The notes beneath the pieces were generated by a model. That model was not told the DNA's origin, did not search any database, and worked only from the letters and a program-made list of their open reading frames with translations. Of a stretch of 64,000 nucleotides of DNA, positions 2,353 through 54,474 are shown in pieces. The stretch comes from Mucilaginibacter sp. (GTDB lineage Bacteria > Bacteroidota > Bacteroidia > Sphingobacteriales > Sphingobacteriaceae). The stretch spans positions 25,203 to 89,202 of the forward strand of contig NZ_JBGCVY010000049.1 of assembly GCF_041088075.1 (NCBI RefSeq), given 5' to 3'. Position numbers and translations under genes: made by a program. Numbering within the stretch: the stretch's first letter is position 1; every line of letters starts with the position of its first letter.

Positions 2353-2464
2353 TGAATCATCAATGTAACTTTATTGTTAATTACAGACTTAAATATCCTG
2401 TTTAAACCACAGTGATTTCTTCTGCAAATCATCCAATTTTCTACAAAATCTGTTTTTATTTTTA

Positions 2465-2493
2465 TCCAAATTTTTACCTGGTAAAAGAAGCAT
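2465..2493. repeat. Family-1 R-arm abutting the response-regulator start
   Basis: CCAAATTTTTACCTGGTAAAAGAAGCAT; its last T is the first base of the TTG start. Confidence 0.8.
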
Positions 2494-3167
2494 TGAAAAT
2501 ACTGATCATTGAAGACGAAACCGGCCTGCGCGAAAGTATAGAAGAATACTTTACCGAAGCAGGAAACATCTGCGAAACGGCCAGTGATTTCTTTTCGGCC
2601 AAAAACAAAATCAACTTGTACCGCTACGATTGTATTTTATTGGATATTACCTTGCCAAATGGCAATGGGCTGGAAATCTTAAAAACCTTGAAAGGGCAGA
2701 ATTATCCCGATGGTGTATTGATTATTTCGGCAAAAAACTCTTTGGATGACCGTTTGCAAGGTTTAGACTTGGGCGCGGATGATTATTTGGTAAAACCTTT
2801 TCACCTATCAGAGCTACGCGCGAGGGTTACGGCCATTATCCGCAGAAAATCTTTTGATGGAAATAACCTGCTTACTTTTAATGAAATACAAGTTGACCTG
2901 CTGGCAAAATCGGTAAAAGTACAAGGCAATATCACCAAACTAACAAAAAAAGAATATGCCTTGCTGCTGTATTTTATGGCTAATAAAGGCAAAGTAGTTT
3001 CTAAAAACGCCATTGCAGAACACTTATGTGGCGATGAAATTGATGCCGCCGATAATTTTGATTTTATCTATTCGCATATTAAAAACCTCCGTAAAAAGAT
3101 GATGGAAGCCGGTGGAACAGATTACATCAGGGCAGCATACGGCATGGGTTATAAGTTTACCGCCTGA
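2493..3167 (+). CDS. OmpR/PhoB-type response regulator
   Basis: Receiver domain (KILIIEDE...DCILLDITLP...K) plus winged-helix C-terminus. The ORF is open from 2412, but the family-typical N-terminus MKILIIEDE corresponds to the TTG at 2493. Confidence 0.85.
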   Translation: MKILIIEDETGLRESIEEYFTEAGNICETASDFFSAKNKINLYRYDCILLDITLPNGNGLEILKTLKGQNYPDGVLIISAKNSLDDRLQGLDLGADDYLVKPFHLSELRARVTAIIRRKSFDGNNLLTFNEIQVDLLAKSVKVQGNITKLTKKEYALLLYFMANKGKVVSKNAIAEHLCGDEIDAADNFDFIYSHIKNLRKKMMEAGGTDYIRAAYGMGYKFTA

Positions 3168-4426
3168 TGAAGCTTTTTGCCACTTATAACCGGGTAAACC
3201 TGGTTACAACCGTGATCGTGATCCTGATTACAGGGGTGGTCTATTACCAGGCCATCAGCCTCATCCTTACCAACCAATTGAACAAAGACCTGGAAGTAGA
3301 AGAGCAGGAAATATTAGATTTTGTAAAACTAAACCACCGGTTGCCGCAGGTTTTTGATTCGAAAGACCAGCAAATCGAGTTTAGGAAAGAACAAAATTTA
3401 CCGGTTAAAAGAAGCTTTATAAACACTTATTATTACAATAAAAAGGAACAGGAAAACGAGCCCGGCCGCGGACTGATCAGTTCTGTTGTGGTAAATGGAA
3501 ACCGCTATAAAGTTTTGATTGCCGAATCTACGGTAGAAACAGAAGACCTGATCAAAATTATTTTTATCATCACTATCGGGATTATTTTACTGTTGATCGC
3601 CATCCTGTTTTTCATCAACCGTTTTATCCTCAACCGCTTGTGGCAGCCGTTTTATGTTACTTTATCACGGATAAGTTCTTTTAATATTATGGATCAGAAG
3701 GAAACCCAAAGGCCGGAGACCAACATTGATGAGTTTAACCAACTAAACGAAGCCGTTGAAAAGATGTGGGCAAGGGTAAAAAAAGAATACCAGGAGCTTA
3801 AAAAATTTACTGAAAATGCTGCCCACGAACTGCTTACGCCAATTGCGGTGATCAATTCTAAATTGGATACGCTTATCCAAACCGACAATTTCAGCCAGCG
3901 GCAAAGCGAATTGTTGAGCGATCTGTATGGTACAGTTTCCAGGTTAAAAAGACTGAACAAAGCCATGCTGCTGCTGGTAAAAATCGAAAACGGATTGATT
4001 GAAGAAGAGCAAATGATCAGCCTGAAAGAAATGGTTACCGAAACCATTGCTTCTTTTCAGGAGCTTTTTTTGGATAAAGACTTGGAAGTGGGCTGCGAAC
4101 TGGAAAACAAAGAAATCAGGGCGAATAATTATTTGATTGAAGTATTGCTGAATAATCTAATTGGCAACGCGATCCGCCACAATTATGCCAACGGAAAAAT
4201 TAAACTCACTTTAAACCATGATTGCCTGATGATACAAAATACCGGTAAAAACATGGCTTTAAATGATAAGGAAATTTTTAGACGGTTTAATAAATCTTCC
4301 GGATCCGAAGGCAGCGGGCTGGGCTTAACCATTGCAAAACAGATTTGCGAAAATTATCATTATCAGTTTTCATACGCTTTTTACCCGCCTTTTCACACTT
4401 TTAAAATTCACTTTCAGCCTGCCTGA
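3167..4426 (+). CDS. Sensor histidine kinase
   Basis: Two TM segments, H-box AHELLTPIA, and N and G boxes (NAIRH, GSGLGLTIAKQ). Its ATG overlaps the response regulator stop (TGATG). Confidence 0.9.
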   Translation: MKLFATYNRVNLVTTVIVILITGVVYYQAISLILTNQLNKDLEVEEQEILDFVKLNHRLPQVFDSKDQQIEFRKEQNLPVKRSFINTYYYNKKEQENEPGRGLISSVVVNGNRYKVLIAESTVETEDLIKIIFIITIGIILLLIAILFFINRFILNRLWQPFYVTLSRISSFNIMDQKETQRPETNIDEFNQLNEAVEKMWARVKKEYQELKKFTENAAHELLTPIAVINSKLDTLIQTDNFSQRQSELLSDLYGTVSRLKRLNKAMLLLVKIENGLIEEEQMISLKEMVTETIASFQELFLDKDLEVGCELENKEIRANNYLIEVLLNNLIGNAIRHNYANGKIKLTLNHDCLMIQNTGKNMALNDKEIFRRFNKSSGSEGSGLGLTIAKQICENYHYQFSYAFYPPFHTFKIHFQPA

Positions 4427-4470
4427 TCCTTTAATGTTGATAAAACAAACTCATATATCTACTTTCCCTG

Positions 4471-4499
4471 ATGCTTCTTTTACCACTAAAAAATCATTG
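4471..4499. repeat. Family-1 L-arm
   Basis: ATGCTTCTTTTACCACTAAAAAATCATTG; a possible degenerate partner lies at about 4553-4571. Confidence 0.8.
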
Positions 4500-4713
4500 C
4501 CGATTAATCATTCGTTACGAAATTTATTAATGAACGGAAGGGTTTTTCTCCTACAATACCAAAAGAAACAATTAATCTTAACCTTGATTTAACAATTACA
4601 GGGTAAATCTACCAGTGTTGTTAAGCCGCGGTTATCAAATTATTACCATTTTGATCTTCCCGTTTTTTCGCTTTTCCGACTGGTAGGTTTGCGGCTTAAT
4701 CAACTTATTGCTG

Positions 4714-8987: not shown

Positions 8988-9077
8988 TTGTAAATGTTGT
9001 TTTGACAATCCTGTTGCCTTGTACTTTTTAATTTGTATTGATTTTATTATTCTAACTTGCATTAAAATTTCAGTACT

Positions 9078-9222
9078 TGTTTAAATATATTAGAGGAAAA
9101 ATTGCCAATGCTTCTTTTACCCTATAAAAATTGGTGCCTGCATCCATTTAAATAAAACGAATGTTTACCAGTTTTTAGGTGATAAAAGAAGCATGGATAT
9201 TTTATCAAGTAAATTTTAAACA
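9078..9222. repeat. Family-1 composite palindromic element (complete)
   Basis: TGTTTAAAT at 9078-9086, L-arm 9108-9136, loop, R-arm 9168-9194, TTTTAAACA at 9214-9222. Confidence 0.9.
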
Positions 9223-9248
9223 GGAACTTACAATTGTAAACTTAACCC

Positions 9249-9806
9249 ATGAAAAAAACGATAATTCCGCTGCTGCTTTTCACCATATTTTGCCTGGTAA
9301 AAGAAGCATCGGCACAAGCCGACAACCTTAAAATTGTATTTATCCGCCACGCCGAAAAACCTGCAAAAGGAGACAATTTAACCTGCCAGGGATTGAACCG
9401 CGCTTTGCAATTGCCAGAATTGATCCGCCGCAAGTTTGGCGTTCCAAACTTTCTTTTTGCTCCGGGTTTAGGTTTGGGCGAGGCAACCAAACATGCCCGT
9501 ATGTTCCAAACCATTGCCCCAATTGCAATCAAATATAATTTGCCTATCAACACCAGCCATGCCGAAAAAGATTCGATGTTGATTGCGCAAGATTTAAAAA
9601 GCCGGACAGGGACAATTATTGTTGTTTGGGAACATAAAGCCATTGCACCGATCGTCCGGTCTTTGGGTGTAACAGCATCAAATTTGATTTGGCCTGATGA
9701 CGATTATGACAGCATTTGGATTGTTGCTTTTGTAAACGGAAAAGCAGTTTTTTCAAAAGACCGGGAAGGCTTGCACCCCTCTGCTGATTGTAACTTTCAC
9801 CAATAG
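9249..9806 (+). CDS. Secreted histidine phosphatase (phosphoglycerate mutase-like) family protein
   Basis: RHAEK catalytic motif and a downstream WEH. The signal-peptide region is encoded by a full Family-1 R-arm (9281-9309). Confidence 0.7.
   Translation: MKKTIIPLLLFTIFCLVKEASAQADNLKIVFIRHAEKPAKGDNLTCQGLNRALQLPELIRRKFGVPNFLFAPGLGLGEATKHARMFQTIAPIAIKYNLPINTSHAEKDSMLIAQDLKSRTGTIIVVWEHKAIAPIVRSLGVTASNLIWPDDDYDSIWIVAFVNGKAVFSKDREGLHPSADCNFHQ
9281..9309. repeat. Family-1 R-arm inside a CDS (signal-peptide region)
   Basis: CACCATATTTTGCCTGGTAAAAGAAGCAT, encoding FTIFCLVKEAS. Confidence 0.8.
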
Positions 9807-10037: not shown

Positions 10038-12194
10038 TTACACCAAACGGAATCCGTGCTTTTTAATTGGAAGTTCCCGAACCCTAAACCCTGTTGCGGC
10101 AAATATGGCATTGCACAATGCAGGTGCTACAGAGGGCACGGACGGCTCACCGCCCCCATCAGGTTTTTCTTCGCCAGCAACCAGGTCAATCTCGAAAGGT
10201 GGCATTTCGTTCATGCGCAATACCTGGTAATCATTAAACGACTGCTGGTTCACAATCCCGTTTGTGATCGTTATTTCGTTGTTGAACATCCCGCTTAAAG
10301 CCCAAACCAGGCTGCCTTCTATTTGTGCCTTTAAACCATCGGGGTCAATCACCAACCCGCAATCAACGGCTGCAACACAGCGGTGGATTTTCACAAGCTT
10401 GTCTTTGCTGACAGATATTTCCATGGCATGGGCCACAACTGCCCCGGAACGGCCATAAGGGCAAACGGCTATCCCGCGATAACGTCCGGTTGCCGGTTTT
10501 TCGTTCCAGCCTATTTTCTCGGCACATCGGGTCAATACGTTTTTCAGGCGTACATTGTCTTTTGGGTTGCCGTTGTTAAACAAGTTAAACCTGAAAATTA
10601 CCGGATCTATTTGGTGATGAACGGCCAGCTCGTCAATAAAACTTTCGATCACAAACACATTCTGACTGAATGAGATTGAACGCCATGACCCTATTGGTAT
10701 TGGCGATTCGACCGGATAAAATGCGCTTTGGTAATCGCCAACGGGATAGCAAAGATCGTTTGTTACGCCTCCGAAACTGTCCCATGGGCCTGATATTTCT
10801 TTGTTTGGAAACGTAGCGATCCCATATTGATGCCGCCAATGGCTGATTTGGTCTTGTGCACCTACTGCTGCCAAATGGTGATGGCTTGCTGGCCTGTAAA
10901 AATCGGCCTGGATATCATCGGTACGGTTGAACAACACCTGCACCGGCAAATCCAAAGCCTTGGTAAGCAGCATGGCTTCGGCCACATTGTCTATTTTTTC
11001 TTTTCGGCCAAAACTACCGCCCATCGGCATCAGGTTTACATTGATGGCAGAACTCTCAACCCCGAAAATTTTTGGCAAAACATTGTTGATAAACATCGGT
11101 GCCTGGAAGCCGCCCCAAACTTCATACTTGCCGTCTTTATGCCAGGCAGTACAGTTAACAGGTTCCATGGTGGCATGTCCAAGATAAGGCACTTCATAAG
11201 TAGCCTGGTAAACACCGGAATGATCATCAATGGTTTTGAATGGCGCATTTTTTTCTTTGCCATAAACCAGGGCTGGTTTAACGCTTGCAAACTCGGTTTT
11301 AAATTGGTTTGTAAGGTCTTTGTTGTTTTTTATTTTACCAAGTTCGTAGCTCCATTGTACTTTCAACAAACGCTTGCCTTCCTGGGCAGCCCAGGTATTG
11401 GTTGCAATCACCGCTACGGCATTTCTGTTAAGCGCTTCCGGTATTTGGTCAACCTGGATTACTTTAACAAACCCTTTTAAGCCTTTTAACGCGCTATCGT
11501 CCCAACTCTTTACCTTGCCACTAAATACCGGGCAGCGCACCAGTGCGGCATAAAGCATACCGGGCAGTTTAACGTCCATTGTATAGTCATACTTGCCCGT
11601 TACAATTGGTGCGATGTTTGTTTTGGTTATTTTTTGCCCGATGTGCTTAAAATCTTTTATATTTTTAAGCGGGGCCTTTTCCGGAGGGGTTAAAGCACTT
11701 GCTTCTTTTATCAGGTCTTTATAGTCTAAAACCTTGTTATTAACCGTATTGCTTACTTTACCATCCTTTGCCGTACAAGCCTCGACAGGCACTTTCCATC
11801 GTTCTGCAGCAGCCGTTATCAGCATAAGTTTAGCTGTGGCACCAACATGGCGCAGTTGCATCCACGTCCCTTTGATACTTCCGCTGGCCCAGGTGGTATA
11901 ATTGCCTGCATTTGATGCCTTGTAAGGCAGTGTTTCAACCGTTATTTCTTTTGGGTCAACTTCCAGTTCCTCTGCAATAACCAGCGGCAATGCAGTAATC
12001 ACGTTCTGGCCCATTTCCTGCTTGATCACGCTGATAACCACTTTGCCGGTATCAAATATCTTTAATAACGGGTTGGGCGAGAAAATCAAACCTTCAGGCG
12101 CAGTTACTGCCGATGAAGATACAGGCAAAGCATCCGTCAGGAGCCATGCACCTGCCGTAAATGTTGAAATACGTATAAAATCTCTTCTTTTCAC
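10038..12194 (-). CDS. Molybdopterin-binding oxidoreductase large subunit (aldehyde oxidase / IorB family)
   Basis: 718 aa with a Tat-type signal (MKRRDFIRIS) and resemblance to the xanthine-dehydrogenase-family Mo-binding domain. Confidence 0.85.
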   Translation of the reverse strand: MKRRDFIRISTFTAGAWLLTDALPVSSSAVTAPEGLIFSPNPLLKIFDTGKVVISVIKQEMGQNVITALPLVIAEELEVDPKEITVETLPYKASNAGNYTTWASGSIKGTWMQLRHVGATAKLMLITAAAERWKVPVEACTAKDGKVSNTVNNKVLDYKDLIKEASALTPPEKAPLKNIKDFKHIGQKITKTNIAPIVTGKYDYTMDVKLPGMLYAALVRCPVFSGKVKSWDDSALKGLKGFVKVIQVDQIPEALNRNAVAVIATNTWAAQEGKRLLKVQWSYELGKIKNNKDLTNQFKTEFASVKPALVYGKEKNAPFKTIDDHSGVYQATYEVPYLGHATMEPVNCTAWHKDGKYEVWGGFQAPMFINNVLPKIFGVESSAINVNLMPMGGSFGRKEKIDNVAEAMLLTKALDLPVQVLFNRTDDIQADFYRPASHHHLAAVGAQDQISHWRHQYGIATFPNKEISGPWDSFGGVTNDLCYPVGDYQSAFYPVESPIPIGSWRSISFSQNVFVIESFIDELAVHHQIDPVIFRFNLFNNGNPKDNVRLKNVLTRCAEKIGWNEKPATGRYRGIAVCPYGRSGAVVAHAMEISVSKDKLVKIHRCVAAVDCGLVIDPDGLKAQIEGSLVWALSGMFNNEITITNGIVNQQSFNDYQVLRMNEMPPFEIDLVAGEEKPDGGGEPSVPSVAPALCNAIFAATGFRVRELPIKKHGFRLV

Positions 12195-17043: not shown

Positions 17044-17079
17044 TCTTTAATAAGTTTACTTAAATTTATGGGAGAAACG

Positions 17080-17101
17080 CACCCCTAACCCCTCTCAAGA
17101 G
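17080..17101. repeat. Left half of the 34-bp palindrome split by the MIC (includes the 12-bp duplicated target)
   Basis: CACCCCTAACCCCTCTCAAGAG; its partner GGGTTAGGGGTG lies at 18573-18584. Confidence 0.8.
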
Positions 17102-17152
17102 TAACTATATATGAGTTGGGATAAGATTTTTTTGATATTAAAAAAGCAGGTA

Positions 17153-17560
17153 TTAACGTATAATACCTGCTTCAATCATTGTGGATAGTTCAATCTCCGT
17201 CTTTTCTACACACTCATCAATATGACAATAAATTAGGTTGTCTTTTTTATTATCTACAAATATTTTTTTAGCAATACCATCCGTTAAACCAATTATGTTA
17301 TAATGGCAAGGATCGCCTTGCGAATCATCAAATTCTATTTGGCAATTTGGTAATAAGTCCCCACTGAATTTGAAATACATTGGAGGATTGGTGTGTTTTG
17401 GGAAATAGTTTCTAATATGGCTACACGTTCCACCTGACAATTTAATTGCACATTCTGAATCAATAACGGATATTCCGTTTTTACCCCTAAAGGCCATGCT
17501 GTTGAATCTTTTTCCTTTTGTTTCATAATGGTGTAAGGATAAAATTCTGATAAACTCCAT
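17153..17560 (-). CDS. Hypothetical protein (MIC cargo)
   Basis: 135-aa ORF that overlaps the upstream ORF by 226 nt in another frame, so its true start or a frameshift is unresolved. Confidence 0.4.
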   Translation of the reverse strand: MEFIRILSLHHYETKGKRFNSMAFRGKNGISVIDSECAIKLSGGTCSHIRNYFPKHTNPPMYFKFSGDLLPNCQIEFDDSQGDPCHYNIIGLTDGIAKKIFVDNKKDNLIYCHIDECVEKTEIELSTMIEAGIIR

Positions 17561-17982
17561 TGTGTTCTTTGATGTATTAATTCCTTTTTTAATCCCTCTA
17601 TGCTTAAAATATCTGATTGGTATAAATCATTATCTTCTTTGTCCATGATTGAAAAATGAAATTTGTTATCGTTTTTAACAAAAATCTCAACCGCTGAATT
17701 TAAAAAATATATTTTAATTAAAACTTCACCATCAAATCCAGGAAAAACGTCTATTGAGGTAAATAACATATTATAAAGGTAAAAACATAGATTTTTTGAC
17801 CTATCAATTGTTTCTATGTTAAATATTTCACCTTCTCCATAGTGCCAACCTTTCTTAAAGGTTAAGAATGTATCAAGCTTTTTAAAAATTGAATTCTTGC
17901 TTTCGCTTGGATTTAAAACAAATAATCCGTAGTTTATTTTATTTTGTTTCATCATCTCTAAGTTTAGCCATTGCCCGATCAA
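17335..17982 (-). CDS. Hypothetical protein (MIC cargo)
   Basis: 215-aa ORF; internal Met codons at 17955 and 17952 are more likely starts; contains a GWHYGEGE...FPGFDGEVLI motif. Confidence 0.5.
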   Translation of the reverse strand: MIGQWLNLEMMKQNKINYGLFVLNPSESKNSIFKKLDTFLTFKKGWHYGEGEIFNIETIDRSKNLCFYLYNMLFTSIDVFPGFDGEVLIKIYFLNSAVEIFVKNDNKFHFSIMDKEDNDLYQSDILSIEGLKKELIHQRTQWSLSEFYPYTIMKQKEKDSTAWPLGVKTEYPLLIQNVQLNCQVERVAILETISQNTPILQCISNSVGTYYQIAK

Positions 17983-18268
17983 TTACATCAGTAGTCATTA
18001 TTTCATTGTTTGAACTTGTTTCCAATCCTACAATTAATCCAGAAAGTTGCATAACAAGCGTTTTAGCAACACTCAAAGATAAGTTAAGTACAGCCTTAGA
18101 CTCATTATTTAGTTTTGCAAGTATTACTATATCGGCATTTGTCATTCCCGTTACAAATCCGTTAAAATAAAGCTTAGGTACATTAGGGTCTTTGTTCGCT
18201 TTGGGTAAATCGTTTACATCTGGCGTTGGTGGTGATATTTTTTGATATTTTAATGTTTTGTCAGACAT
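17939..18268 (-). CDS. Hypothetical protein, DUF3467-like (MIC cargo)
   Basis: 109 aa. The pattern YFNGF..(T/S)..D(I/V)V(I/L)......V.L.LS...AK.L...L matches my recollection of DUF3467; not verified by search. Confidence 0.45.
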   Translation of the reverse strand: MSDKTLKYQKISPPTPDVNDLPKANKDPNVPKLYFNGFVTGMTNADIVILAKLNNESKAVLNLSLSVAKTLVMQLSGLIVGLETSSNNEIMTTDVIDRAMAKLRDDETK

Positions 18269-18560
18269 AATTACTGTTTGATTGCTTACTATATAGGTTT
18301 ATTTTAAACAAAATACGAAAAGATTTTCTTTTTATTTGGTATAAATGTAATTACAATTACCACATTAAAGTGTATAAATTTTGTTAAGGTTTTTCTTTTT
18401 TTGTGTTTTCCTAAAAAATACTCTAATAGCCTCATCAAACTACCTTTGATAGCCATATCTCTTTTTTCATCTTTAACAGGAGGCGGTTTTTCTTTTTTCT
18501 CCTTTGCCGATACTGCATTAAAAAACGGTTCACACCCTTGTTCCAACTCGTATATAGTTA

Positions 18561-18584
18561 CCCTATCAAGAGGGGTTAGGGGTG
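18561..18584. repeat. Right target-duplication copy plus the right half of the split palindrome
   Basis: CCCTATCAAGAG followed by GGGTTAGGGGTG. Confidence 0.8.
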
Positions 18585-18607
18585 TGTCCTTTCAACAAAT
18601 ATTTAAT

Positions 18608-18657
18608 GCTATAAAAGCATCAGGTTCAAAAACCTTTCTCTATACAAAATTGGTGAC
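18608..18657. repeat. Degenerate Family-1 remnants (R-like GCTATAAAAGCAT, L-tail-like TATACAAAATTGGTG)
   Basis: Partial matches only. Confidence 0.4.
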
Positions 18658-19040
18658 TATTCCTTCTTCTCCAACTCCTTCTCCTTCACCTTAGCTTCCG
18701 TTTTTTCGATCTTGATGTCCAAGCGGATCAAGCCGTACAAACTCATGTAAATGTTGGCAATCCAAACCAGACTGAAACCGGCAATTAAATAGCCGCGCCA
18801 ACCATCAAACAACAATTTGTAACCGGTAATGATCAGCATAAAAATGGTGATGTAATGGCTGAAACAGTATTCGCAGGTAAACAAATAGAAAAACTTACGG
18901 GCGGCCAGTGTTTTTTGTTCGTGGCTGTTTTTCACGCAAAACTCCCGGATCTCTTTAAAAACTTCTTCGTGCGTAACCGTCCACGAAATGCAGGCAACCG
19001 GAATGGCCAGCACAAATAACATAACGAAAGGGTTGTACAT
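18657..19040 (-). CDS. Small integral membrane protein
   Basis: 127 aa with 3-4 predicted TM helices. A variant Family-1 arm ends 3 nt upstream of the ATG. Confidence 0.55.
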   Translation of the reverse strand: MYNPFVMLFVLAIPVACISWTVTHEEVFKEIREFCVKNSHEQKTLAARKFFYLFTCEYCFSHYITIFMLIITGYKLLFDGWRGYLIAGFSLVWIANIYMSLYGLIRLDIKIEKTEAKVKEKELEKKE

Positions 19041-24587: not shown

Positions 24588-25490
24588 CTAAAAATACAAA
24601 TCAATCGCCGTTTTATAGGTATTGCAGTGCGCATCCACAATATCTTTAATGTCTGCCGAATAACCGCCGCCCATGCTTACCTGCACAGGTATTTTATTTG
24701 CCTGACATAATTGCAGTACAAATTCATCGCGCGCTTTGCAGCCTTCTTTCGATAAAGCCAATTTCCCTAATTTGTCCGTCGCCAGTACGTCAACGCCAGC
24801 CAGGTAAAAAATAAAATCAGGTTTAGTTTGATCAATCAATTTTGGCAATGCTTCTTTTAGCAGCATAAAATAAGCGTCGTCGCCTATTCCATCCAACAAC
24901 GGAATGTCCAAATCAGAACGTTCTTTTCGGTACGGGAAATTGTTGGCGCCGTGCATCGAAAAAGTAAAAACTTTGGGTTGATGTTGAAATATTTCGGCCG
25001 TTCCGTTTCCCTGGTGCACATCCAAATCAACAATTAAAATCGAGTCTGCCAATGCTTCTTTTAGCAGGTAATTTGCAGCGATGGCCTGGTCATTCAGCAT
25101 ACAAAAACCTTCGCCCCAATTGCTGCCGGCATGGTGCGTGCCGCCGGCAACGTTAAAAGCGATACCATTTTCGAAAGCGAAATGACAGCCATCAATCGTC
25201 CCCTGTGCAATACGGATTTCGCGTTCTACCAATTGCGCCGATAAGGGGAAACCAATCCTTCGTTGTTCTTTTGCTGGTAACGTTAAATCGCGCAGTTGCT
25301 GCCAGTAATATGCATCATGTGTCCACAATATTTTTTCTTCGGAAATTGGTTTTGGGGAGAAAATATTTTCTGCCGAAATCACGCCTTCATGCAGCAATTG
25401 CGCCGGGATCAGTTCGTATTTCAGCATCGGGAAACGATGGCCAGGCGGCAAAGGGTGCGCGTAAATTGGATCGAAAGCGATTTTCAACAT
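24588..25490 (-). CDS. Histone deacetylase / acetoin-utilisation family deacetylase
   Basis: Motifs GGTHHAG and DLDVHQGNG; 300 aa. Confidence 0.9.
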   Translation of the reverse strand: MLKIAFDPIYAHPLPPGHRFPMLKYELIPAQLLHEGVISAENIFSPKPISEEKILWTHDAYYWQQLRDLTLPAKEQRRIGFPLSAQLVEREIRIAQGTIDGCHFAFENGIAFNVAGGTHHAGSNWGEGFCMLNDQAIAANYLLKEALADSILIVDLDVHQGNGTAEIFQHQPKVFTFSMHGANNFPYRKERSDLDIPLLDGIGDDAYFMLLKEALPKLIDQTKPDFIFYLAGVDVLATDKLGKLALSKEGCKARDEFVLQLCQANKIPVQVSMGGGYSADIKDIVDAHCNTYKTAIDLYF

Positions 25491-26407: not shown

Positions 26408-27010
26408 TTATCGGTTTGGTTTGCTCACGTAAGGGTTTCCCTTCACATAAAAACGATAAGGCAGCAGCGCATCTTCTTTGGCATAAGCCACGCCAACGCG
26501 TGGAACGGCAGCAATTTGTTCATTATTATAGATAAGTCCTCGGTCTTCGATCCAAATTTCTTCGCCCAAAAAACTAAAACCATTCATTTTTCGGGAAATA
26601 CCCAAAGCTTTGGCAACAGAACCCGGACCGGCCGTCAAATTATTTTTGACAGACGGCATATTCCTTCTTTCCAGCATCAATTCAATACCTTCGGTTGGGT
26701 TGATGGCACGGATCAAAACGGCGTGCGGTTCGCCTTCCACCGAAGTTACCACGTTCAGCATTTCGTGGATGCCATAGCACAAATAAACGTAAGCAATGCC
26801 GCCGTTTTCATACATCGTTTTGGTGCGGTTGGTTTTGCGGTTGCCAAAAGCATGCGAAGCTTTATCAACGATGCCTGCATAAGCTTCGGTTTCTACAATA
26901 AAACCACCGCTCACTTCGCCGTTAATGTTGGTGAACAAATATTTGCCCAGCAAATCACGTGCGATTTGTGATACTTCTTTTATCAAGTAAAAATCAGTGG
27001 GTAGTTTCAA
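26408..27010 (-). CDS. mpg: DNA-3-methyladenine glycosylase (Mpg/AAG family)
   Basis: Motifs IVETEAYAG, SHAF, YVYLCYGIH and VLIRA. Residues 4-14 are encoded by a Family-1 arm. Confidence 0.9.
   Translation of the reverse strand: MKLPTDFYLIKEVSQIARDLLGKYLFTNINGEVSGGFIVETEAYAGIVDKASHAFGNRKTNRTKTMYENGGIAYVYLCYGIHEMLNVVTSVEGEPHAVLIRAINPTEGIELMLERRNMPSVKNNLTAGPGSVAKALGISRKMNGFSFLGEEIWIEDRGLIYNNEQIAAVPRVGVAYAKEDALLPYRFYVKGNPYVSKPNR
26971..27001. repeat. Family-1 arm inside the mpg coding sequence
   Basis: ATACTTCTTTTATCAAGTAAAAATCAGTGGG; on the gene strand it encodes PTDFYLIKEV. Confidence 0.75.
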
Positions 27011-27483
27011 AACTTTAACAGCTTTAATATTTGTTCCAGGTATTTGGCATCGGTTTCGTCAAACTCATTCAAATCAGCACTGTCCGCATCCAATACGCCA
27101 ACTACATTTTCTCCCGCAAAAACCGGCACCACAATTTCTGATCTCGACAAAGAACTGCAGGCAATATGCCCAGGAAAAGCGTCCACATCCGGCACAAGCA
27201 GCGTTTTTGCTTCTGCCCAGGAAGTGCCGCAAACGCCGCGCCCTTTTTGGATGCGTGTACAGGCAACCGGCCCTTGAAACGGGCCAAGCACCAATTGTGC
27301 TTCTTTTACCAGGTAAAATCCTATCCAAAACCAGTTGAATTGTTGTTTTAAAGCCGCCGCAATGTTGGCCAGATTGGCAATTAAATCCGTTTCGCCTTCA
27401 ATTAAAGCTTTAATTTGCGGAATCAGCGCTTCATATTGTTCTGCTTTTGTTCCGCTTCGCGTGATGGTTAAATCTTCTGCCAT
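27007..27483 (-). CDS. GAF domain protein (free methionine-R-sulfoxide reductase-like)
   Basis: Motifs KGRGVCGTSW and PGHIACSSLSRSEIVVPV; 4-nt overlap with mpg. Confidence 0.8.
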   Translation of the reverse strand: MAEDLTITRSGTKAEQYEALIPQIKALIEGETDLIANLANIAAALKQQFNWFWIGFYLVKEAQLVLGPFQGPVACTRIQKGRGVCGTSWAEAKTLLVPDVDAFPGHIACSSLSRSEIVVPVFAGENVVGVLDADSADLNEFDETDAKYLEQILKLLKF

Positions 27484-27574: not shown

Positions 27575-28309
27575 ATGATCGTGAGTTTAACCATCGTCCG
27601 TTACCCAAAAGCATTTGTCCCGCTGGCGCTGATGGCGATGGCGATACTTCGTTTACCGATGCTTTTTCAGCGTAAATGTTCTTTTTATAAATTGATGGGC
27701 AGCGGCAAAAACGGCACTTTCGATTTTCATCCCGACTGGCAACAATGGGCTTTGCTGGCCGTTTGGGAAGATGAGGAAAGCTTCAACCGTTTCGACCAAA
27801 ATTCCTTTGTTTCGAAGTGGTGGAAAAATTTAACTGCCGAAAAATGGACGGTTTTGCTTCAACCCATCCAAACACATGGCAAATGGGACAAACAGGAACC
27901 TTTTGGCGAACCCAACTTAACTGATTATCAAGGGCCAATTGCTGTTTTGACCCGCGCCACCATCAACTTAAACCGTTTAAAAAACTTTTGGCAAAATGCG
28001 GCCAATATTGCTTCGATCATGACTTCCGCGCCGGGTTATATTACGTCGCTGGGCGTTGGCGAAGACCCGTTTTTGCACCAAGCCACCATTTCTTTTTGGC
28101 AAGATTTGGAAGCAGTGAAAAACTTTGCCTACCGCTCGCCGAAACATGTAGAAGTGATCAAAAAAACGCGCAGTGAAAACTGGTACAGCGAAGAACTTTT
28201 TGCCCGTTTTGTTCCTTTAAAAGCTTGGGGAACGCTGCGCGGAAAAAACCCGTTGCAAGGTTTTGTTGATGATGCTGCAACGAAAAACGATGCTTCTTTT
28301 ACCGGCTAA
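27575..28309 (+). CDS. DUF3291 / spheroidene-monooxygenase-like family protein (assignment uncertain)
   Basis: 244 aa; N-terminal pattern recalled from that family. The last 7 codons and the stop lie inside a Family-1 L-arm. Confidence 0.45.
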   Translation: MIVSLTIVRYPKAFVPLALMAMAILRLPMLFQRKCSFYKLMGSGKNGTFDFHPDWQQWALLAVWEDEESFNRFDQNSFVSKWWKNLTAEKWTVLLQPIQTHGKWDKQEPFGEPNLTDYQGPIAVLTRATINLNRLKNFWQNAANIASIMTSAPGYITSLGVGEDPFLHQATISFWQDLEAVKNFAYRSPKHVEVIKKTRSENWYSEELFARFVPLKAWGTLRGKNPLQGFVDDAATKNDASFTG

Positions 28310-28318
28310 AAATCAACC
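28290..28318. repeat. Family-1 L-arm containing a CDS stop codon
   Basis: ATGCTTCTTTTACCGGCTAAAAATCAACC; it encodes DASFTG plus the stop. Confidence 0.8.
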
Positions 28319-28344
28319 TAAAACTTTATTTTTAAACTATTTAT

Positions 28345-30888: not shown

Positions 30889-32136
30889 ATGCAGACCATC
30901 CAACCACTTTTAGAGAACGCTGCCAAAGCAACCCGTTTCGTCCGAATTTTGGCCGATATACAAAAAAAGCTGTTGCTCGAAAAATTAGCGCAGCAAATCC
31001 AAGCTTCTACCCAGGAAATTATCCGGGAAAACCAAAAAGATTTAGACCGGATGGACGATACCGACCCGAAAAAAGACCGTTTGCTGTTGAACGAAAACCG
31101 CATTCATAATTTGGCCGAAAGCGTTTTTGCGGTTTCTTTGCTCACCGATCCCACCAACCGGATTTTGTCTGAAAAAACTTTGCCCAATGGCTTGTTCATC
31201 CAACAAAAAACCGTTCCGTTGGGCGTTATCGGCATCATTTATGAATCGCGCCCAAACGTAACCATTGATGTTGCCACATTATGCATCCGTTCGGGCAATG
31301 TTTGCGTGCTGCGCGGCGGCACCGATGCTTCTTTTACCAATGTTTTTTTAGTCTCGCTGATCCGAAAAGTGCTGGAAGGTTTCGGGCTGGATCAAAACAT
31401 CGTGCAGCTTTTGCCAACTGACCGCAAGTTCATTATGGAAATGCTCACGGCGGTGAAATACATTGATGTTATCATTCCGCGCGGTTCGCAACAACTGATC
31501 AATTATGTGCGCGAACATGCCAAAGTTCCGGTCATCGAAACCGGTGCCGGCGTTTGCCACACTTATGTTGAACGTACGGCTGACTTGGAAAAAGCTACCG
31601 CCATTGTGGTGAATGCAAAAGTTTCACGCCCGTCGGTCTGTAATGCGTTGGATACCATTTTGGTGGATGAAAACATTGCCGAAAAACTACTGCTAAAAAC
31701 AGCATCGCAATTCAAGGAGTTTCAGGTAGAGATTTTTGCGGACGAACGCGCCTTTGCCATCCTCAAAAACAACAATTACCCCTACTTGCAACAAGCAAAA
31801 CCGGAAGACTTTGGCCGGGAGTTTTTGGATTTTAAATGCTCTGTAAAAATAGTATCCGGTTACGAAGAAGCGCTGGGACACATTGTACAGTTTTCCTCCA
31901 AACATTCGGAAGCCATCGTTTCGCAAGACCAAAACCTGTGCGAAGCCTTTTTAAACGACGTGGATGCCGCTGCCGTTTACGCCAATGCTTCCACCCGTTT
32001 TACCGACGGCAGCGAATTTGGCCTGGGTGCCGAAATTGGTATCTCTACCCAAAAACTACATGCCCGCGGCCCGTTTGCCCTGGAAAAACTGGTTACGGAG
32101 AAATGGGTTGTGCGGGGCGATGGGCAGGTGCGGTAG
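30889..32136 (+). CDS. proA: Glutamate-5-semialdehyde dehydrogenase
   Basis: Motifs IYESRPNVT, VCNALDT and NASTRFTDG. The ORF is open from 30832, but that extension overlaps repeat sequence. Confidence 0.9.
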   Translation: MQTIQPLLENAAKATRFVRILADIQKKLLLEKLAQQIQASTQEIIRENQKDLDRMDDTDPKKDRLLLNENRIHNLAESVFAVSLLTDPTNRILSEKTLPNGLFIQQKTVPLGVIGIIYESRPNVTIDVATLCIRSGNVCVLRGGTDASFTNVFLVSLIRKVLEGFGLDQNIVQLLPTDRKFIMEMLTAVKYIDVIIPRGSQQLINYVREHAKVPVIETGAGVCHTYVERTADLEKATAIVVNAKVSRPSVCNALDTILVDENIAEKLLLKTASQFKEFQVEIFADERAFAILKNNNYPYLQQAKPEDFGREFLDFKCSVKIVSGYEEALGHIVQFSSKHSEAIVSQDQNLCEAFLNDVDAAAVYANASTRFTDGSEFGLGAEIGISTQKLHARGPFALEKLVTEKWVVRGDGQVR

Positions 32137-34952: not shown

Positions 34953-35705
34953 TTAAGCGTTAAAATTAAACAGATCGGCGGCTGTAAAGAAACCTTTACG
35001 GTCTTTAACCCACTCGGCGGCCAGCACCGCGCCCAAAGCAAAACCTGAGCGATTGTGCGCCGTATGTTTAAACTCGATGCTGTCCACTTCCGAATCGTAA
35101 ACCACGGTATGCGTGCCTGGAACATTTTCGATCCGGTGCGATTCGATCAGCAATTGCTGCGGCGTAATGCTAAGCGGCGAAGCATCATTCAAAGTGCCCG
35201 AAACCACATTGACCCATGCTTCTTTTACCGGCATATTTTCGATGATGCCTTCGGCGATGGTGATGGCCGTTCCGCTTGGCGCATCTAATTTTTGGGTATG
35301 GTGGATTTCTTCGACCTGAACTTCGTAATCCGGGAAACGATTCATCACTTTGGCCAGCATTTTATTGATATGGAAAAAAATATTCACACCAACACTAAAA
35401 TTGGAAGCGTAAATCAGGGAAGCATTGCGCTGCAAACACTCAATTTTAACTTCCTGCAATTTTTCGTACCAGCCCGTTGCGCCAACCACAACCGGAATTT
35501 CGGCTTCAAAACAAAGCGCAATATTGTTTAAAACGGTATGCGGCGTACTAAATTCGATCGCAACGTCTGCTTTTTGCAGGTTTTCTAAAGTTAGTTCCTG
35601 CAAATTATCATGATCAATTTTCAGAACAATTTCGTGTTTGCGCTCCAGGGCAACCTGCTCGATCATCTTGCCCATTTTTCCGTATCCGAGTAAAGCTATT
35701 TTCAT
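34953..35705 (-). CDS. dapB: 4-hydroxy-tetrahydrodipicolinate reductase
   Basis: Motifs GYGKMG and [15 protein letters not shown]. Confidence 0.9.
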
Positions 35706-38857: not shown

Positions 38858-38922
38858 CCCTCAGCTAAAGCCTCACCCAGAGAGAGGAATTAAGAAAACC
38901 TTAACTTTATCCTGTCAGAGCC

Positions 38923-39069
38923 TGTTTAAAATTTTCCAATTTATTTTCCATGCTTCTTTTACCCTATAAAAATTAGTAAATATTTGGTTTTTAGTTTATA
39001 AAAATTGATGCCGGCACCAATTTTTATAGGGTAAAAGAAGCATTGGCATTTTTCATATAAATTTAAACA
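38923..39069. repeat. Family-1 composite element (complete)
   Basis: TGTTTAAAA outer box, L-arm 38950-38978, R-arm 39015-39043, TTTAAACA at 39062-39069. Confidence 0.9.
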
Positions 39070-39105
39070 AGCTCTTAATATTCATTCCCAAACCAATACT
39101 TGCCC

Positions 39106-39627: not shown

Positions 39628-39890
39628 GTTGATTTGTTTTTGATGCTTCTTTTATCGCATAAAAATCATTGTCTGGTATTTTCCAATAATGTTTTGGCTA
39701 AAGCCATTCGCCGATCTGCTTTAACCACGGCCTCAAGCCATGGCAATTGAAGTTTCTGAAGTTTTAGGTTGAATTGTTTTTGATGCTTCTTTTATCGCAT
39801 AAAAACATTGGCTGTATTTGCAAAAATGTTTTGGCTAAAGCCATTTGCCGGTCTGCTTTAACCACGGCCTAAAGGCCATGGCAATTGTAG
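39612..39890. repeat. Tandem direct duplication (2 x about 140 bp); each copy carries a Family-1 L-arm and a Family-4 half
   Basis: Copy 1 is 39612-39751 and copy 2 is 39752-39890. Copy 1 starts inside the last 16 nt of CDS 39106-39627. Confidence 0.8.
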
Positions 39891-39978
39891 CAAAATTTTG
39901 GGGAAGAAATTCGGTTATTTTCATTGCCACGGCCTTTAGGCCGTGGTTAATGTCGCTTAGCATTGGCTTTAGCCAAAA
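39829..39978. repeat. Family-4 long palindrome (TTGGCTAAAGCCA / AACCACGGCCTAAAGGCC modules)
   Basis: 39858-39885 pairs with 39923-39950, and 39829-39844 pairs with 39962-39978. Confidence 0.75.
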
Positions 39979-47253: not shown

Positions 47254-47388
47254 ATGCTTCTTCCCTCCTCTTTCTGGTGATGCTTCTTTTACCGCACAAA
47301 AATCAGTGTTGACAGCCTCAGCCCAACCTTTTTTAAAATAGAGAAAGCCTGCTACACTTTCACTAATTTTATGCGGTAAAAGAAGCAT
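47254..47388. repeat. Family-1 composite (partial L, full L-arm, R-arm)
   Basis: Partial ATGCTTCTTCC at 47254, L-arm 47280-47308 and R-arm 47361-47388. Confidence 0.85.
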
Positions 47389-50325: not shown

Positions 50326-50450
50326 TCATCCCCCTAACCCCCTTCAAAGGGGGGAAGCCTATCGCCTACCTTTCTAAAGTTCAAAAGATTGGGGATGAAA
50401 AGATATGCGCCCTGGTCCTTTTCCCCCTTTGAAGGGGGCCAGGGGGATGA
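50326..50450. repeat. Family-3 inverted hairpin pair (TCATCCCCCTAACCCCCTTCAAAGGGGG type)
   Basis: Arms at 50326-50354 and 50421-50450, each internally palindromic; located between the ABC ATPase and permease genes. Confidence 0.8.
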
Positions 50451-51479: not shown

Positions 51480-52985
51480 ATGGAACAAAAGGCTGTAAAA
51501 CTGAATGTTGAAAATTTATCATCGCTGCCAAAAGCAGTAAAAGTTCCGGGATACGACCGGTCTAAAATAAAAACCGGGATTGTACATGTGGGCATCGGCG
51601 GTTTCCATCGGGCGCACCAGGCTTTTTACACCGACCAGTTATTGGAACTTGGCGTAACCGATTGGGGGATTTGCGGCATCGCTTTGTTGCAGCACGACAA
51701 AAAAATTTACGATACGCTGGTTGGGCAGAACGGGTTGTACACACTAATGATTACGGAAGCCGACGGCACCAGGACTGCGCGGGTGATCGGCTCAGTTACT
51801 GAATATTTGTTTGCGCCGGAAAACCCAAATGCCGTGATCGAAAAAATGGCGCACCCGGATACAAAGATCATCACGCTGACCATTACCGAAGGCGGCTATA
51901 ATTTCAATCCCGCCACCGGAAAGTTTATGGCCGATAACCCTGCCATCCAAACCGATCTAAAAAACCCGGACCGCCCTGCTACCATTTTTGGCTATCTTGC
52001 CCAAGCCTTGAAACGGCGCAAACAACGCGGTTTACAAGGCATTACCTTGCAATCCTGCGACAACATTCAGCAAAACGGAGCCGTGGCCAAAGAAATGCTT
52101 TTGGCTTATATTGCTTTGGCCGAGCCGGAATTATTGAACTGGGTGAACGAAAATGTTTCTTTTCCGAATGCCATGGTTGACCGCATTACACCGGTAACTT
52201 CTCCCGAAGCCATCGCCGAGCTTCAGGATCAGTTTCAGGTTGAGGATGCCTGGCCGGTGGTGTGCGAGCCTTTTTGCCAATGGATTATAGAAGATGATTT
52301 TGTAAACGGCAGGCCGGATTGGAACTTGGTTGGCGCGCAGTTTGTAAAAGATGTACACCCTTACGAAAAAATGAAGATCAGGTTGGTGAACGGCGGCCAC
52401 GTTGCCTTGGGTTTTACCGGTTTTTTAAACGGTTATCATTTTGTTGATGAAACCATGGCCGACCCTTTGTTTTTTAATTTTGTACATGATTTTTTGGATC
52501 AGGAAGTAACGCCGATTTTGGATGAGGTTCCGGGAATTGACATAAAAGCCTACAAAAAAATTTTGATGCAGCGTTTTGCAAACCCTTATATCAAAGATCA
52601 GCTTGCCCGCATTTTTTCGGAAAGCTCGGCCAAAATCCCTAAGTTTTTGTTGCCAACCATCCAGGAACAATTGGCCAAAGGCGTTACTTTAAAAAAGGCT
52701 GCTTTGATACTGGCGGCCTGGTGCCATTACCTGGAAATAGCCGGGCTTCCGGCCAATAATTTTGACGTGCAGGACGACATGAAAAAAACACTGGTAAAAG
52801 AAGCATCGGCATCTGTACAAGAAGATCCGCTTGCTTTCCTAAAAATAAAACCCATTTTTGGAGATCTGGCAGCATCGGAAAATTTTTCGGCGCAATATCT
52901 TTTCTTTTTAAATATAATACGAAAAGAAGGTATTGCAAAAGCCATCAGCGGGATTGATGGGGAAAAACAGGTTACGGCAAACTAA
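51480..52985 (+). CDS. Mannitol dehydrogenase family oxidoreductase (mannitol/fructuronate/arabinitol type)
   Basis: N-terminal GIVHVGIGGFHRAHQAFY; about 500 aa. Confidence 0.85.
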   Translation: MEQKAVKLNVENLSSLPKAVKVPGYDRSKIKTGIVHVGIGGFHRAHQAFYTDQLLELGVTDWGICGIALLQHDKKIYDTLVGQNGLYTLMITEADGTRTARVIGSVTEYLFAPENPNAVIEKMAHPDTKIITLTITEGGYNFNPATGKFMADNPAIQTDLKNPDRPATIFGYLAQALKRRKQRGLQGITLQSCDNIQQNGAVAKEMLLAYIALAEPELLNWVNENVSFPNAMVDRITPVTSPEAIAELQDQFQVEDAWPVVCEPFCQWIIEDDFVNGRPDWNLVGAQFVKDVHPYEKMKIRLVNGGHVALGFTGFLNGYHFVDETMADPLFFNFVHDFLDQEVTPILDEVPGIDIKAYKKILMQRFANPYIKDQLARIFSESSAKIPKFLLPTIQEQLAKGVTLKKAALILAAWCHYLEIAGLPANNFDVQDDMKKTLVKEASASVQEDPLAFLKIKPIFGDLAASENFSAQYLFFLNIIRKEGIAKAISGIDGEKQVTAN

Positions 52986-52989
52986 GGGC

Positions 52990-53141
52990 CTTTTTAAATT
53001 TATACGAGAAAGAATAATGATGCTTCTTTTACCCTATAAAAATTGGTGTACGCATCAATCTAAATAAACCAGAATTGAATGTTTACGGTTTTTTAGGCGA
53101 TAAAAGAAGCATCGGAAAATATATTAAACAAAATTTAAACA
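52990..53141. repeat. Family-1 composite element (complete)
   Basis: L-arm 53020-53048, R-arm 53085-53112 and TTTAAACA at 53134-53141. The loop is homologous to the loop of the 9078-9222 copy. Confidence 0.9.
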
Positions 53142-53216
53142 GGGTTTAAATCAAGCAGCTTATCTTTATCAAAAACAAGAAATTTAGCTTTTAATTTACG
53201 CTTCCGAAATAAAAAA

Positions 53217-54273: not shown

Positions 54274-54474
54274 ATGCTTCTTTTATCGTATAAAAATTGG
54301 TGCCCGTATCAATTCTTATAAACCAAAACCAAAGGTTCACCAATTTTTAGGTGGTAAAAGAAGCATCGCAAATAAGTTCAACAGAATTTAAACAAGCTCC
54401 AAATGTTCACCAATTTTTATAGGGTAAAAGAAGCATCGCAAATAACTTCAACAAAATTTAAACAAGCTTTTCTA
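54274..54474. repeat. Family-1 composite element with a tandemly duplicated right half
   Basis: L-arm 54274-54302; R-arms 54338-54366 and 54408-54436; 70-bp units at 54335-54404 and 54405-54474. Confidence 0.9.

Follow-up and report, generated by a model that had tools for sequence, protein, structure and literature searches.

Why should two unrelated genes of one genome carry the same 21 nucleotides, read in the same frame? The question arises from a 64,000-nt stretch of a Mucilaginibacter sp. assembly (Bacteroidota, Sphingobacteriaceae; contig NZ_JBGCVY010000049.1, positions 25,203 to 89,202 of the forward strand), which was analysed as a whole and is called the window below. The sequence CTGGTAAAAGAAGCATCGGCA is found exactly at 9294-9314 (+) and 52791-52811 (+), with no other exact copy in the window. 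Both copies read CTG GTA AAA GAA GCA TCG GCA, that is LVKEASA, and each lies inside a real gene. The first covers residues 16-22 of a 185-aa histidine-phosphatase homologue (gene 9249-9806), and the second covers residues 438-444 of a 501-aa protein of the mannitol-dehydrogenase (MDH) family (gene 51480-52985; Pfam Mannitol_dh and Mannitol_dh_C, PF01232 and PF08125). The first-pass annotation of the window had pointed out this match in two unrelated coding sequences, and both the exact matches and the frames were confirmed here. The expected number of matches to the 21-mer in shuffled sequence is 0.00, and eight more near-copies with 2-3 mismatches occur in the window. Even with the peptide LVKEASA granted, the probability of the exact 21-mer under this genome's codon usage is 4.4e-4, and its identity therefore needs a cause at the DNA level.

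Such a cause had been proposed in the first-pass annotation, which tied the 21-mer to a repeat family of the window, and both sites proved to be units of that family: the two 21-mers are copies of a conserved arm (unit) of a lineage-specific, highly abundant DNA motif. The 21-mer is the 3' part of a ~33-bp unit of the form CACCAATTTTTA-nnn-G(G/A)-TAAAAGAAGCAT-yGG, whose A/T tract is either T-rich or A-rich. According to the information profile of the aligned copies, the consensus runs C-A-C-(C)-A-A-T-T-T-T-T-A, three loose bases, G, G/A, TAAAAGAAGCA, T, y, G. The 11-mer core TAAAAGAAGCA has 52 exact copies in the 64 kb (23 plus and 29 minus), and 72 copies if up to one mismatch is allowed, against 3.5 expected. 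A position weight matrix (PWM) built from the window's own motif copies detected 66 units at the threshold of at least 14 bits, where the shuffle maximum was 14.4 bits. By inspection the unit is asymmetric and not a palindrome, and TAAAAGAAGCAT is not self-complementary. A hairpin within the single unit was also considered and rejected, as no consistent CACCAAT/ATTGG pairing could be seen by eye across copies.

Among the 337 units of all motif-bearing loci, 45 carry the variant core TAAAAGAAGTA, with C to T in GCAT, and 18 carry the double variant TAAAAACAGCA, which recurs across genomes, while position -1 of the unit is almost never T (6/337). The core variants are not random, and the change of C to T could be a trace of modified cytosine.

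How far does the motif extend among related bacteria? The closest proteins to those of the window come from uncultured 'Mucilaginibacter sp.' and Sphingobacteriaceae metagenome-assembled genomes. In a genome scan anchored on the histidine phosphatase (80 loci; loci are numbered with the prefix L), the core was present only in the four closest, L001-L004 (68-90% identity), at 0.34-0.72 per kb, and the remaining 76 loci from Mucilaginibacter, Pedobacter and Chitinophagaceae had 0-1 core copies each. A metagenome scan anchored on an HDAC-like deacetylase divided just as sharply, with 0.5-1.05 units/kb in 10 loci of at least 88% identity and no units in 70 loci of at most 83% identity. Pooled, 368.5 kb of motif-bearing DNA contains 337 units and 240 exact cores (0.91 units/kb), and 2.30 Mb of motif-free DNA from 151 loci contains 6 units and 5 exact cores. 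One clade of uncultured Mucilaginibacter-like Sphingobacteriaceae is rich in the motif (~0.9 per kb), which sister genomes essentially lack; extrapolated to the 3.70-Mb chromosome of L003, this would amount to ~3,000 copies. Motif-bearing and motif-free genomes share gene order, and their orthologues are ~80% identical, so that the ancestral states of individual sites can be read directly.

These ancestral states show that units in genes were not inserted but written in place, with no change in length, by clusters of ~3-10 substitutions. The sites concerned are those where the protein tolerates L-[VIL]-K-E-A-[SL] (sense units) or D-A-S-F-T (antisense units), and K-E-A or K-E-V took the place of ancestral residues. 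Fifteen of the 66 units (~20%) are located in open reading frames (ORFs), and at least 3 of the 15 are coincidences. Eight of nine sense copies take the frame xTA-AAA-GAA-GCA, or [VIL]-K-E-A, and five of six antisense copies take GCT-TCT-TTT-ACC, or A-S-F-T. In this genome AAA for Lys and GAA for Glu are the majority codons (81% each), and the Leu codon CTA has a usage of 5%. Codon-level comparison with orthologues covers six in-gene sites of about a dozen, and no indel was seen at the MDH site, at both HDAC sites or at the N-terminus of a methylpurine-DNA-glycosylase (MPG) gene.

A complete unit (9280..9314, +; 37.0 bits in the PWM scan), which holds the first 21-mer, lies in the signal-peptide coding region of the histidine-phosphatase gene and reads F-T-I-F-C-L-V-K-E-A-S-A. 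It occupies the same site in eight motif-bearing genomes with nearly fixed codons (xTA, AAA and GAA each in 8/8; GCA, TCG and GCA each in 7/8), while across the gene 76 of the 93 degenerate columns with identical residues vary in codon. As well, third-position identity in the six-codon window over the unit is 0.92, the gene's highest, against a mean of 0.57. The residues flanking the unit vary (FTIFCL, FTNFYL, FANFYA and others) and track the translation of the unit consensus, T-N-F-Y-R-V-K-E-A-S-A. The signal peptides of more distant, motif-free Mucilaginibacter are of the same length and unrelated. GCA-TCG-GCA encodes an A-x-A that precedes a conserved Gln and is probably the signal-peptidase site. 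The homologue has no Pfam-A match at E 1e-3 or better; it has hundreds of homologues, with an invariant RH[AG]EKP.

The unit in the MDH gene (52777..52811, +; 29.3 bits), which holds the second 21-mer, reads D-M-K-K-T-L-V-K-E-A-S-A. It is present only in the window and in the motif-bearing relatives L081 and L087, as CTG (G/A)TA AAA GAA GCA TCG GCA, and because only close relatives share it, it is probably recent. Four motif-free outgroups have CTG ATT AAA GAA GCG ACT GAA, CTG ATT AAA GAA GCG CTT GAA, CTG GCA GAA AAA GCA ACC GAA and TTG ATA GAA AAA GCA ACG GCA, and 3-5 point changes therefore turned a near-copy into the motif. Most of the A-tract upstream is ancestral, and only ~18 bp changed. 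The first-pass annotation had argued that protein-level constraint could not explain the 21-mers and had named conservation of LVKEASA in repeat-free orthologues as the finding that would overturn this. Its argument holds at both sites, since motif-free orthologues encode other residues there: the histidine-phosphatase signal peptides are unrelated, and MDH reads LIKEATE, LIKEALE, LAEKATE or LIEKATA.

Two further units are found in the HDAC-like deacetylase gene, site 1 (25049..25081, -; N-Y-L-L-K-E-A-L-A), with no indel relative to homologues in the PDB, and site 2 (24845..24877, -; A-Y-F-M-L-L-K-E-A-L-P). At each site, 8/9 motif-bearing genomes have CTG CTA AAA GAA GCA TT(G/A), the exceptions being L095 at site 1 (AAA AAA) and L094 at site 2 (AAA GGA). 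Among Leu codons CTA is the second rarest, and 9/9 of these genomes have it at both sites. Motif-free orthologues show LL[NHSKY][NKS][GNEKS][LI]x at site 1, mostly of LL-N-N-K-LA types (e.g., TTG TTA AAT AAT AAA TTA), and mostly [IL][LV][YKT][DKNQR][TAK][LV]P at site 2, of IL-Y-D-T-LP types, with two deviating further. The HDAC sites show 7-8 changes within 18 bp, and at site 2 a Leu to Phe change upstream (CTG to TTT) gives rise to the T-tract as well. Divergence in the unit windows is 6-11% within the clade, compared with 18-19% in the remainder of the gene, and 33-47% towards motif-free orthologues, compared with 26-29%. This pattern is the mark of a burst of change that was followed by constraint. 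A seemingly additional unit in the L097 HDAC gene came from the way in which the same site was scored.

At the N-terminus of the MPG gene, a unit with the variant core TAAAAGAAGTA (26968..27000, -) reads D-F-Y-L-I-K-E-V. All seven motif-bearing sequences have AAA GAA GTA (K-E-V), where four motif-free orthologues have NNV, PDV, DDV or NDV, and the conserved Val is retained by means of the common GTA variant of the core. Taken across species, the rare codon and the synonymous positions of in-gene units are nearly invariant, as the units, once written, were constrained at the DNA level.

In-gene units are found in other genes as well. In the gene of a GAF-domain protein, a unit (27294..27326, -) reading F-Y-L-V-K-E-A-Q has the same position in the orthologue of 6/6 covering motif-bearing loci. 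Likewise, an antisense unit over the last codons and the stop of a DUF3291 gene (28287..28319, -; D-A-S-F-T-G-stop) keeps its position in 6/6 covering motif-bearing loci. The dapB unit (35213..35245, -; E-N-M-P-V-K-E-A-W) falls in a loop that is variable against DapB sequences of the PDB, and the antisense unit of an aldehyde-dehydrogenase-family gene (31322..31354, -) reads T-D-A-S-F-T-N.

Some matches in genes are not members of the family. The first-pass annotation had put forward a Mo-oxidoreductase as a third example, and its CTGATAAAAGAAGCAAGTGCT (core 11700-11710, minus) does encode LIKEASA. It was rejected as a true unit, because the peptide DL[IVL]KEASALTPP is conserved and is present in the motif-free L092 (GTA AAA GAA GCT AGC GCC); the Mo-oxidoreductase gene of the motif-bearing L090 has CTA AAA GAG GCC, without the exact core. 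The match is a coincidence at the protein level. The weak 'units' at 48527 and 50631 were rejected as well, being conserved peptides (GQKEALK of a binding protein and DAFFTANN of a permease) that match the motif by chance. These coincidences show what a pre-adapted site looks like.

Where are the other units? Supported gene models make up 78% of the window, and units occur at 3.7 per kb between genes against 0.30 per kb within them. Most are thus intergenic, either single or, in many cases, in outward-pointing inverted pairs ~80 bp apart; 27 inverted pairs were counted. The first-pass annotation had also placed extended forms of the word after intergenic arms, and GCGGTAAAAGAAGCATCGGCA at 47373 and AGGGTAAAAGAAGCATTGGCA at 39028 are both indeed intergenic. 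Many pairs are carried inside dispersed palindromic elements of ~150-165 bp, which are 73-81% identical over their full length. Each consists of an outer inverted repeat, AGAGCYTGTTTAAA ... TTTAAACARGCTCT, enclosing a ~22-nt spacer, a reverse unit, a loop, a forward unit and a second spacer. For instance, the complete intergenic element at 38917..39075 runs from AGAGCCTGTTTAAA through spacer, reverse unit, loop, forward unit and spacer to TTTAAACAAGCTCT, and forms a long hairpin when folded (-53.1 kcal/mol, z = -7.7). Another complete element, at 52985..53145 (fold z = -4.4), stands directly 3' of the MDH stop codon, and its L087 counterpart is interrupted by a different, GC-rich CCCCTCTCAAGAGGGG-type repeat (L087 1760-1880). 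The complete element at 9072..9228 is located upstream of the histidine-phosphatase gene, a position kept in L001 and L084. Such elements lie between genes of every arrangement (convergent, divergent or tandem) and may face either way, which argues against a directional role in transcription.

The intergenic units are conserved in position. All units are at matching positions in the window and in L001 (~89% identity), and in a badly diverged spacer the cores are intact and the flanks are not. Moreover, the spacer between the SLFN and MatE genes retains its unit in 7/7 motif-bearing sequences examined amid unalignable surroundings. This spacer is 64-234 bp long in motif-bearing genomes, and those motif-free genomes in which SLFN was found have 40-57 bp there and no unit; the intergenic units are therefore extra DNA that was then conserved.

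Differences between relatives repeatedly adjoin units, at indels and at synteny breakpoints alike. A cassette of a response regulator (2493-3167) and a histidine kinase (3167-4426) is bounded by inward-pointing solo units. The left one (2464..2496, +) abuts the apparent TTG start of the response-regulator gene, and the right one (4468..4500, -) lies 46 bp past the histidine-kinase stop codon. The 89% identical L001 (4060-4170) has 47 bp between inward-pointing units in place of the cassette 2493-4426, and L004 and L086 carry a homologous cassette elsewhere, in the opposite orientation. A 2.5-kb FAH-Omp85 segment in L001, when compared with L084, begins directly after a core, and synteny with L087 ends at the outer repeat of the 54275 element. 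In addition, a 1.6-kb window-specific segment (17045-18678) adjoins the A/T-tract end of the unit 17016(-). It has 30.8% GC, compared with 41.5% in the window, it has no units, its ORFs have no Pfam matches, and it is absent from all motif-bearing relatives covering the region. It looks like a recent horizontal acquisition.

What kind of process could account for all this? It could be supposed that LVKEASA-like peptides are simply favoured in proteins, by convergence or chance, with the identity of the DNA following from codon bias. The majority codons for Lys and Glu would help here, and the peptides of the Mo-oxidoreductase, the binding protein and the permease do resemble the motif by chance. 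However, the codon probability of the 21-mer is too low to agree with it, the peptides are absent from motif-free orthologues of the histidine phosphatase, MDH, HDAC (two sites) and MPG, the rare CTA and the non-majority GCA and TCG are nearly fixed, and the word is far commoner in non-coding DNA. We regard this explanation as highly improbable overall, and for the two 21-mer sites it is already refuted. A signal for gene expression, recognised by RNA polymerase or at the RNA level (promoter, 5'-UTR element, terminator component or site of an RNA-binding protein), with the in-gene copies as internal signals, is improbable as well. Outward pairs do put a forward unit before gene starts and a reverse one behind gene ends, start codons are in some cases directly adjoined by a unit (2482, 20065), and pairs form stable hairpins. 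Yet pairs occur equally in convergent and divergent spacers, in-gene copies take both orientations, no Rfam family matches, and the motif is absent from sister genomes with the same expression machinery. The Bacteroidetes promoter has the layout -33 TTTG / -7 TAnnTTTG, and a reading of the unit as a promoter or ribosome-binding site was rejected because, by inspection, it does not fit this layout, its distance to start codons ranges from 0 to >280 nt, and pairs stand between convergent genes.

A conventional non-autonomous mobile element, of the type of miniature inverted-repeat transposable elements (MITEs) or REPINs, is possible, though we consider it rather unlikely. The in-gene copies would then be by-products, short tracts that ectopic gene conversion or repair template switching carried from the thousands of units in the genome to partly similar coding sites and that survived only where the peptide was harmless, and for these copies ectopic short-patch conversion is a live rival. 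The intergenic elements speak for it in several ways: their dispersal in every gene arrangement and either orientation, their terminal inverted repeats AGAGCYTGTTTAAA and internal inverted units with full-length identity, their long hairpins, the longer spacers of motif-bearing genomes, and the indel and synteny breakpoints that abut units. Moreover, the recurrent TAAAAACAGCA subfamily suggests copying, and the clustered changes at the HDAC sites look like patches. Bacteroidetes are also known to have RAYT subclasses flanked by atypical structures (PMC6006769). On the other hand, no in-gene copy compared with orthologues changes length; transposition cannot yield such indel-free copies, and their behaviour is thus unlike transposon insertion. 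RecA-type conversion from a diverged donor would need a longer tract than the ~18 bp changed at the MDH site, and conserved residues (Leu-Leu, Val) are preserved through compatible variants such as CTA and GTA. Diverged spacers keep the core amid unalignable surroundings, a pattern not predicted by the neutral decay of mobile copies. The unit consensus has no GTAG or CGTC tag, and no RAYT (Y1_Tnp) or other transposase was found among the ~50 window proteins scanned against Pfam. DDE_Tnp_1-family transposase genes, apparently fragmentary, do occur in motif-bearing relatives (L090 7460-8500 and L091 6766-7257), and the L090 gene is flanked by an outer-repeat copy AGAGCCTGTTTAAAT and a compact unit pair. 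They were considered as a candidate parent insertion sequence (IS) and are close to fragments of elements, but no link between them and the terminal repeat could be made. The terminal repeat was not matched by that of any IS identified, and no clear target-site duplication was seen at the element ends.

The explanation that we consider best overall, and probably correct, is an abundant clade-specific motif that was written in place into genes and is kept up at the DNA level by a sequence-specific process. Such a process would act genome-wide on DNA to favour alleles matching the word and would involve a protein recognising the core. As for its nature, uptake or a recombination-type drive may be the readiest candidate, although we hold even this tentatively; selection for a host DNA-binding function and short-patch templated conversion from thousands of repeat copies are each a lesser possibility, and a small share is left for other processes. 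A more far-reaching proposal, which we advance with considerable reserve, is that TAAAAGAAGCAT and the A/T tract serve as the self-recognition sequence of a DNA-handling machine. Bacteroidota would then have their first described sequence that resembles an uptake signal or is otherwise propagated by a drive. Its pressure would suffice to rewrite proteins to K-E-A at several sites in the window (by extrapolation several hundred per genome), and it would seed palindromic elements at operon borders, where they mark the gain and loss of cassettes.

Several points weigh against in-place writing with upkeep of the word. Units are 12-fold denser between genes than within, and ORFs contain only ~20% of them, whereas known uptake sequences have 34-65% of their copies there (PMC2817400). 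The elements are homologous over their full ~150 bp and are extra DNA relative to motif-free genomes, so that intergenic elements look copied rather than drifted in place. The in-gene sample is small, about a dozen sites with six at codon level, and the motif-bearing genomes are related, so that codons conserved among them do not count as independent evidence. Neither a competence gene nor a reader protein, a transposase or a methylase could be linked to the motif, and no competence genes were noticed in ~370 kb of clade DNA. To our knowledge, natural competence with sequence-specific uptake is not known in Bacteroidota, and a literature search found no report of sequence-specific uptake in this phylum.

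Among known systems, the upkeep of uptake signal sequences (USS, Pasteurellaceae) and DNA uptake sequences (DUS, Neisseriaceae) by DNA-uptake bias would be the closest working model, with HIP1, under selection of unresolved function, as the other. According to previous work, USS and DUS gather in preferred frames at poorly conserved residues, have 34-65% of their copies in ORFs and are missing from newly acquired genes (PMC2817400). The word described here resembles them in its short asymmetric core with flanking A/T tracts, its density of ~1 per kb on both strands, its restriction to a clade and its frequent intergenic inverted pairs. It also shares their preferred frames at poorly conserved residues in genes, without indels, and their absence from newly acquired DNA. 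It differs in that only ~20% of units are in ORFs, that units are embedded in ~150-bp dispersed palindromic elements, and that the phylum is Bacteroidota, in which we know of no uptake sequence. HIP1 (GCGATCGC, cyanobacteria) is likewise very abundant and conserved both in ORFs and between them, is maintained by something other than protein function, and has no resolved function (PMC5861425); it is, however, an 8-bp perfect palindrome spread across coding DNA, and the present word is asymmetric, ~12 nt plus flanks, and mostly intergenic. Sites of the present word are conserved beyond the neutral expectation in both settings. The polar chromosome motifs Chi and KOPS differ in their strand bias along a replichore, as no strong bias is seen here (23 plus vs 29 minus, in one 64-kb window whose replichore position is not known).

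The intergenic copies have their own parallels. Similar to REP/BIME/REPIN-RAYT systems, there are high-copy intergenic units of 20-40 bp, single or in inverted hairpin pairs, which are vertically inherited and conserved in position, but the present unit is no palindrome, bears no GTAG/CGTC tag and has no RAYT among the ~50 window proteins. REPs in genes have been described as insertions that add residues (PMC3733652), which the copies found in genes here do not. MITEs such as Correia/NEMIS, ERIC and RUP share the length of 100-170 bp, the terminal inverted repeats, the lack of coding capacity, the dispersal at gene borders and the hairpins. By definition a MITE is a non-coding 70-300-bp element with terminal inverted repeats and many dispersed, full-length-homologous copies, and the present elements have these features. 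Unlike MITEs, they are most strongly conserved in the internal 12-nt word and not at their termini, the in-gene copies are found without insertion, and no target-site duplication or parent IS was identified. Rickettsia palindromic elements are also a repeat family translated inside functional genes (PMC3733652), but they are in-frame insertions adding tens of residues, whereas here residues are substituted and protein length is unchanged.

Database searches gave little else. Rfam had no matching family, two tRNAs being the sole matches of the window at the gathering score. Collections of plasmids, phages and viral contigs held no match to the element, and a 17-mer of the unit had one match in each of four viral contigs, unclustered. 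A literature string search for the core returned unrelated primers only, and nothing specific on uptake sequences or REP/RAYT in Mucilaginibacter or Bacteroidetes was found. An iterated word with USS/HIP1-like behaviour in genes, carried by REP/MITE-like intergenic elements in Bacteroidota, is thus not described in the literature searched.

The interpretation offered in the first-pass annotation is essentially right, and it opens onto a larger phenomenon. We know of very few lineages in which iterated words invade coding sequence by substitution, namely those of USS, DUS and HIP1, and each of these raised lasting questions of molecular drive versus function. The present motif appears to be a clean new case in another phylum. 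Its protein cost can be measured, as residues are replaced by K-E-A/K-E-V, a rare codon is fixed, and the A-x-A of a signal peptide is encoded by the motif, and it is linked to palindromic elements and indel breakpoints. In this clade the question of drive versus selection can be tested with existing metagenomes. For annotation, caution is advised, since peptide likeness between unrelated proteins of this clade can stem from a DNA motif.

Finally, some minor observations were made around the units. The response-regulator gene appears to start at TTG 2493, right after the unit core (TAAAAGAAGCA-TTG-AAA-ATA-CTG, M-K-I-L), and its Pfam receiver domain starts just past this codon, at residue 30 of the longer ORF. 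The window also contains other GC-rich palindromic repeats, TCATCCCCCTAACCCCCTTCAAAGGGGGGAA and TTAACCACGGCCTAAAGGCCATGGCAAT, each with its complement (50326-50450 and 39858-39950), and the repeat that interrupts the L087 element is similar to them. As well, segments bearing units are locally duplicated: near-identical arms stand 70 bp apart at 54355 and 54425 (54338-54440), and the units 39644 and 39784, with near-identical flanks, are 140 bp apart (39644-39794).

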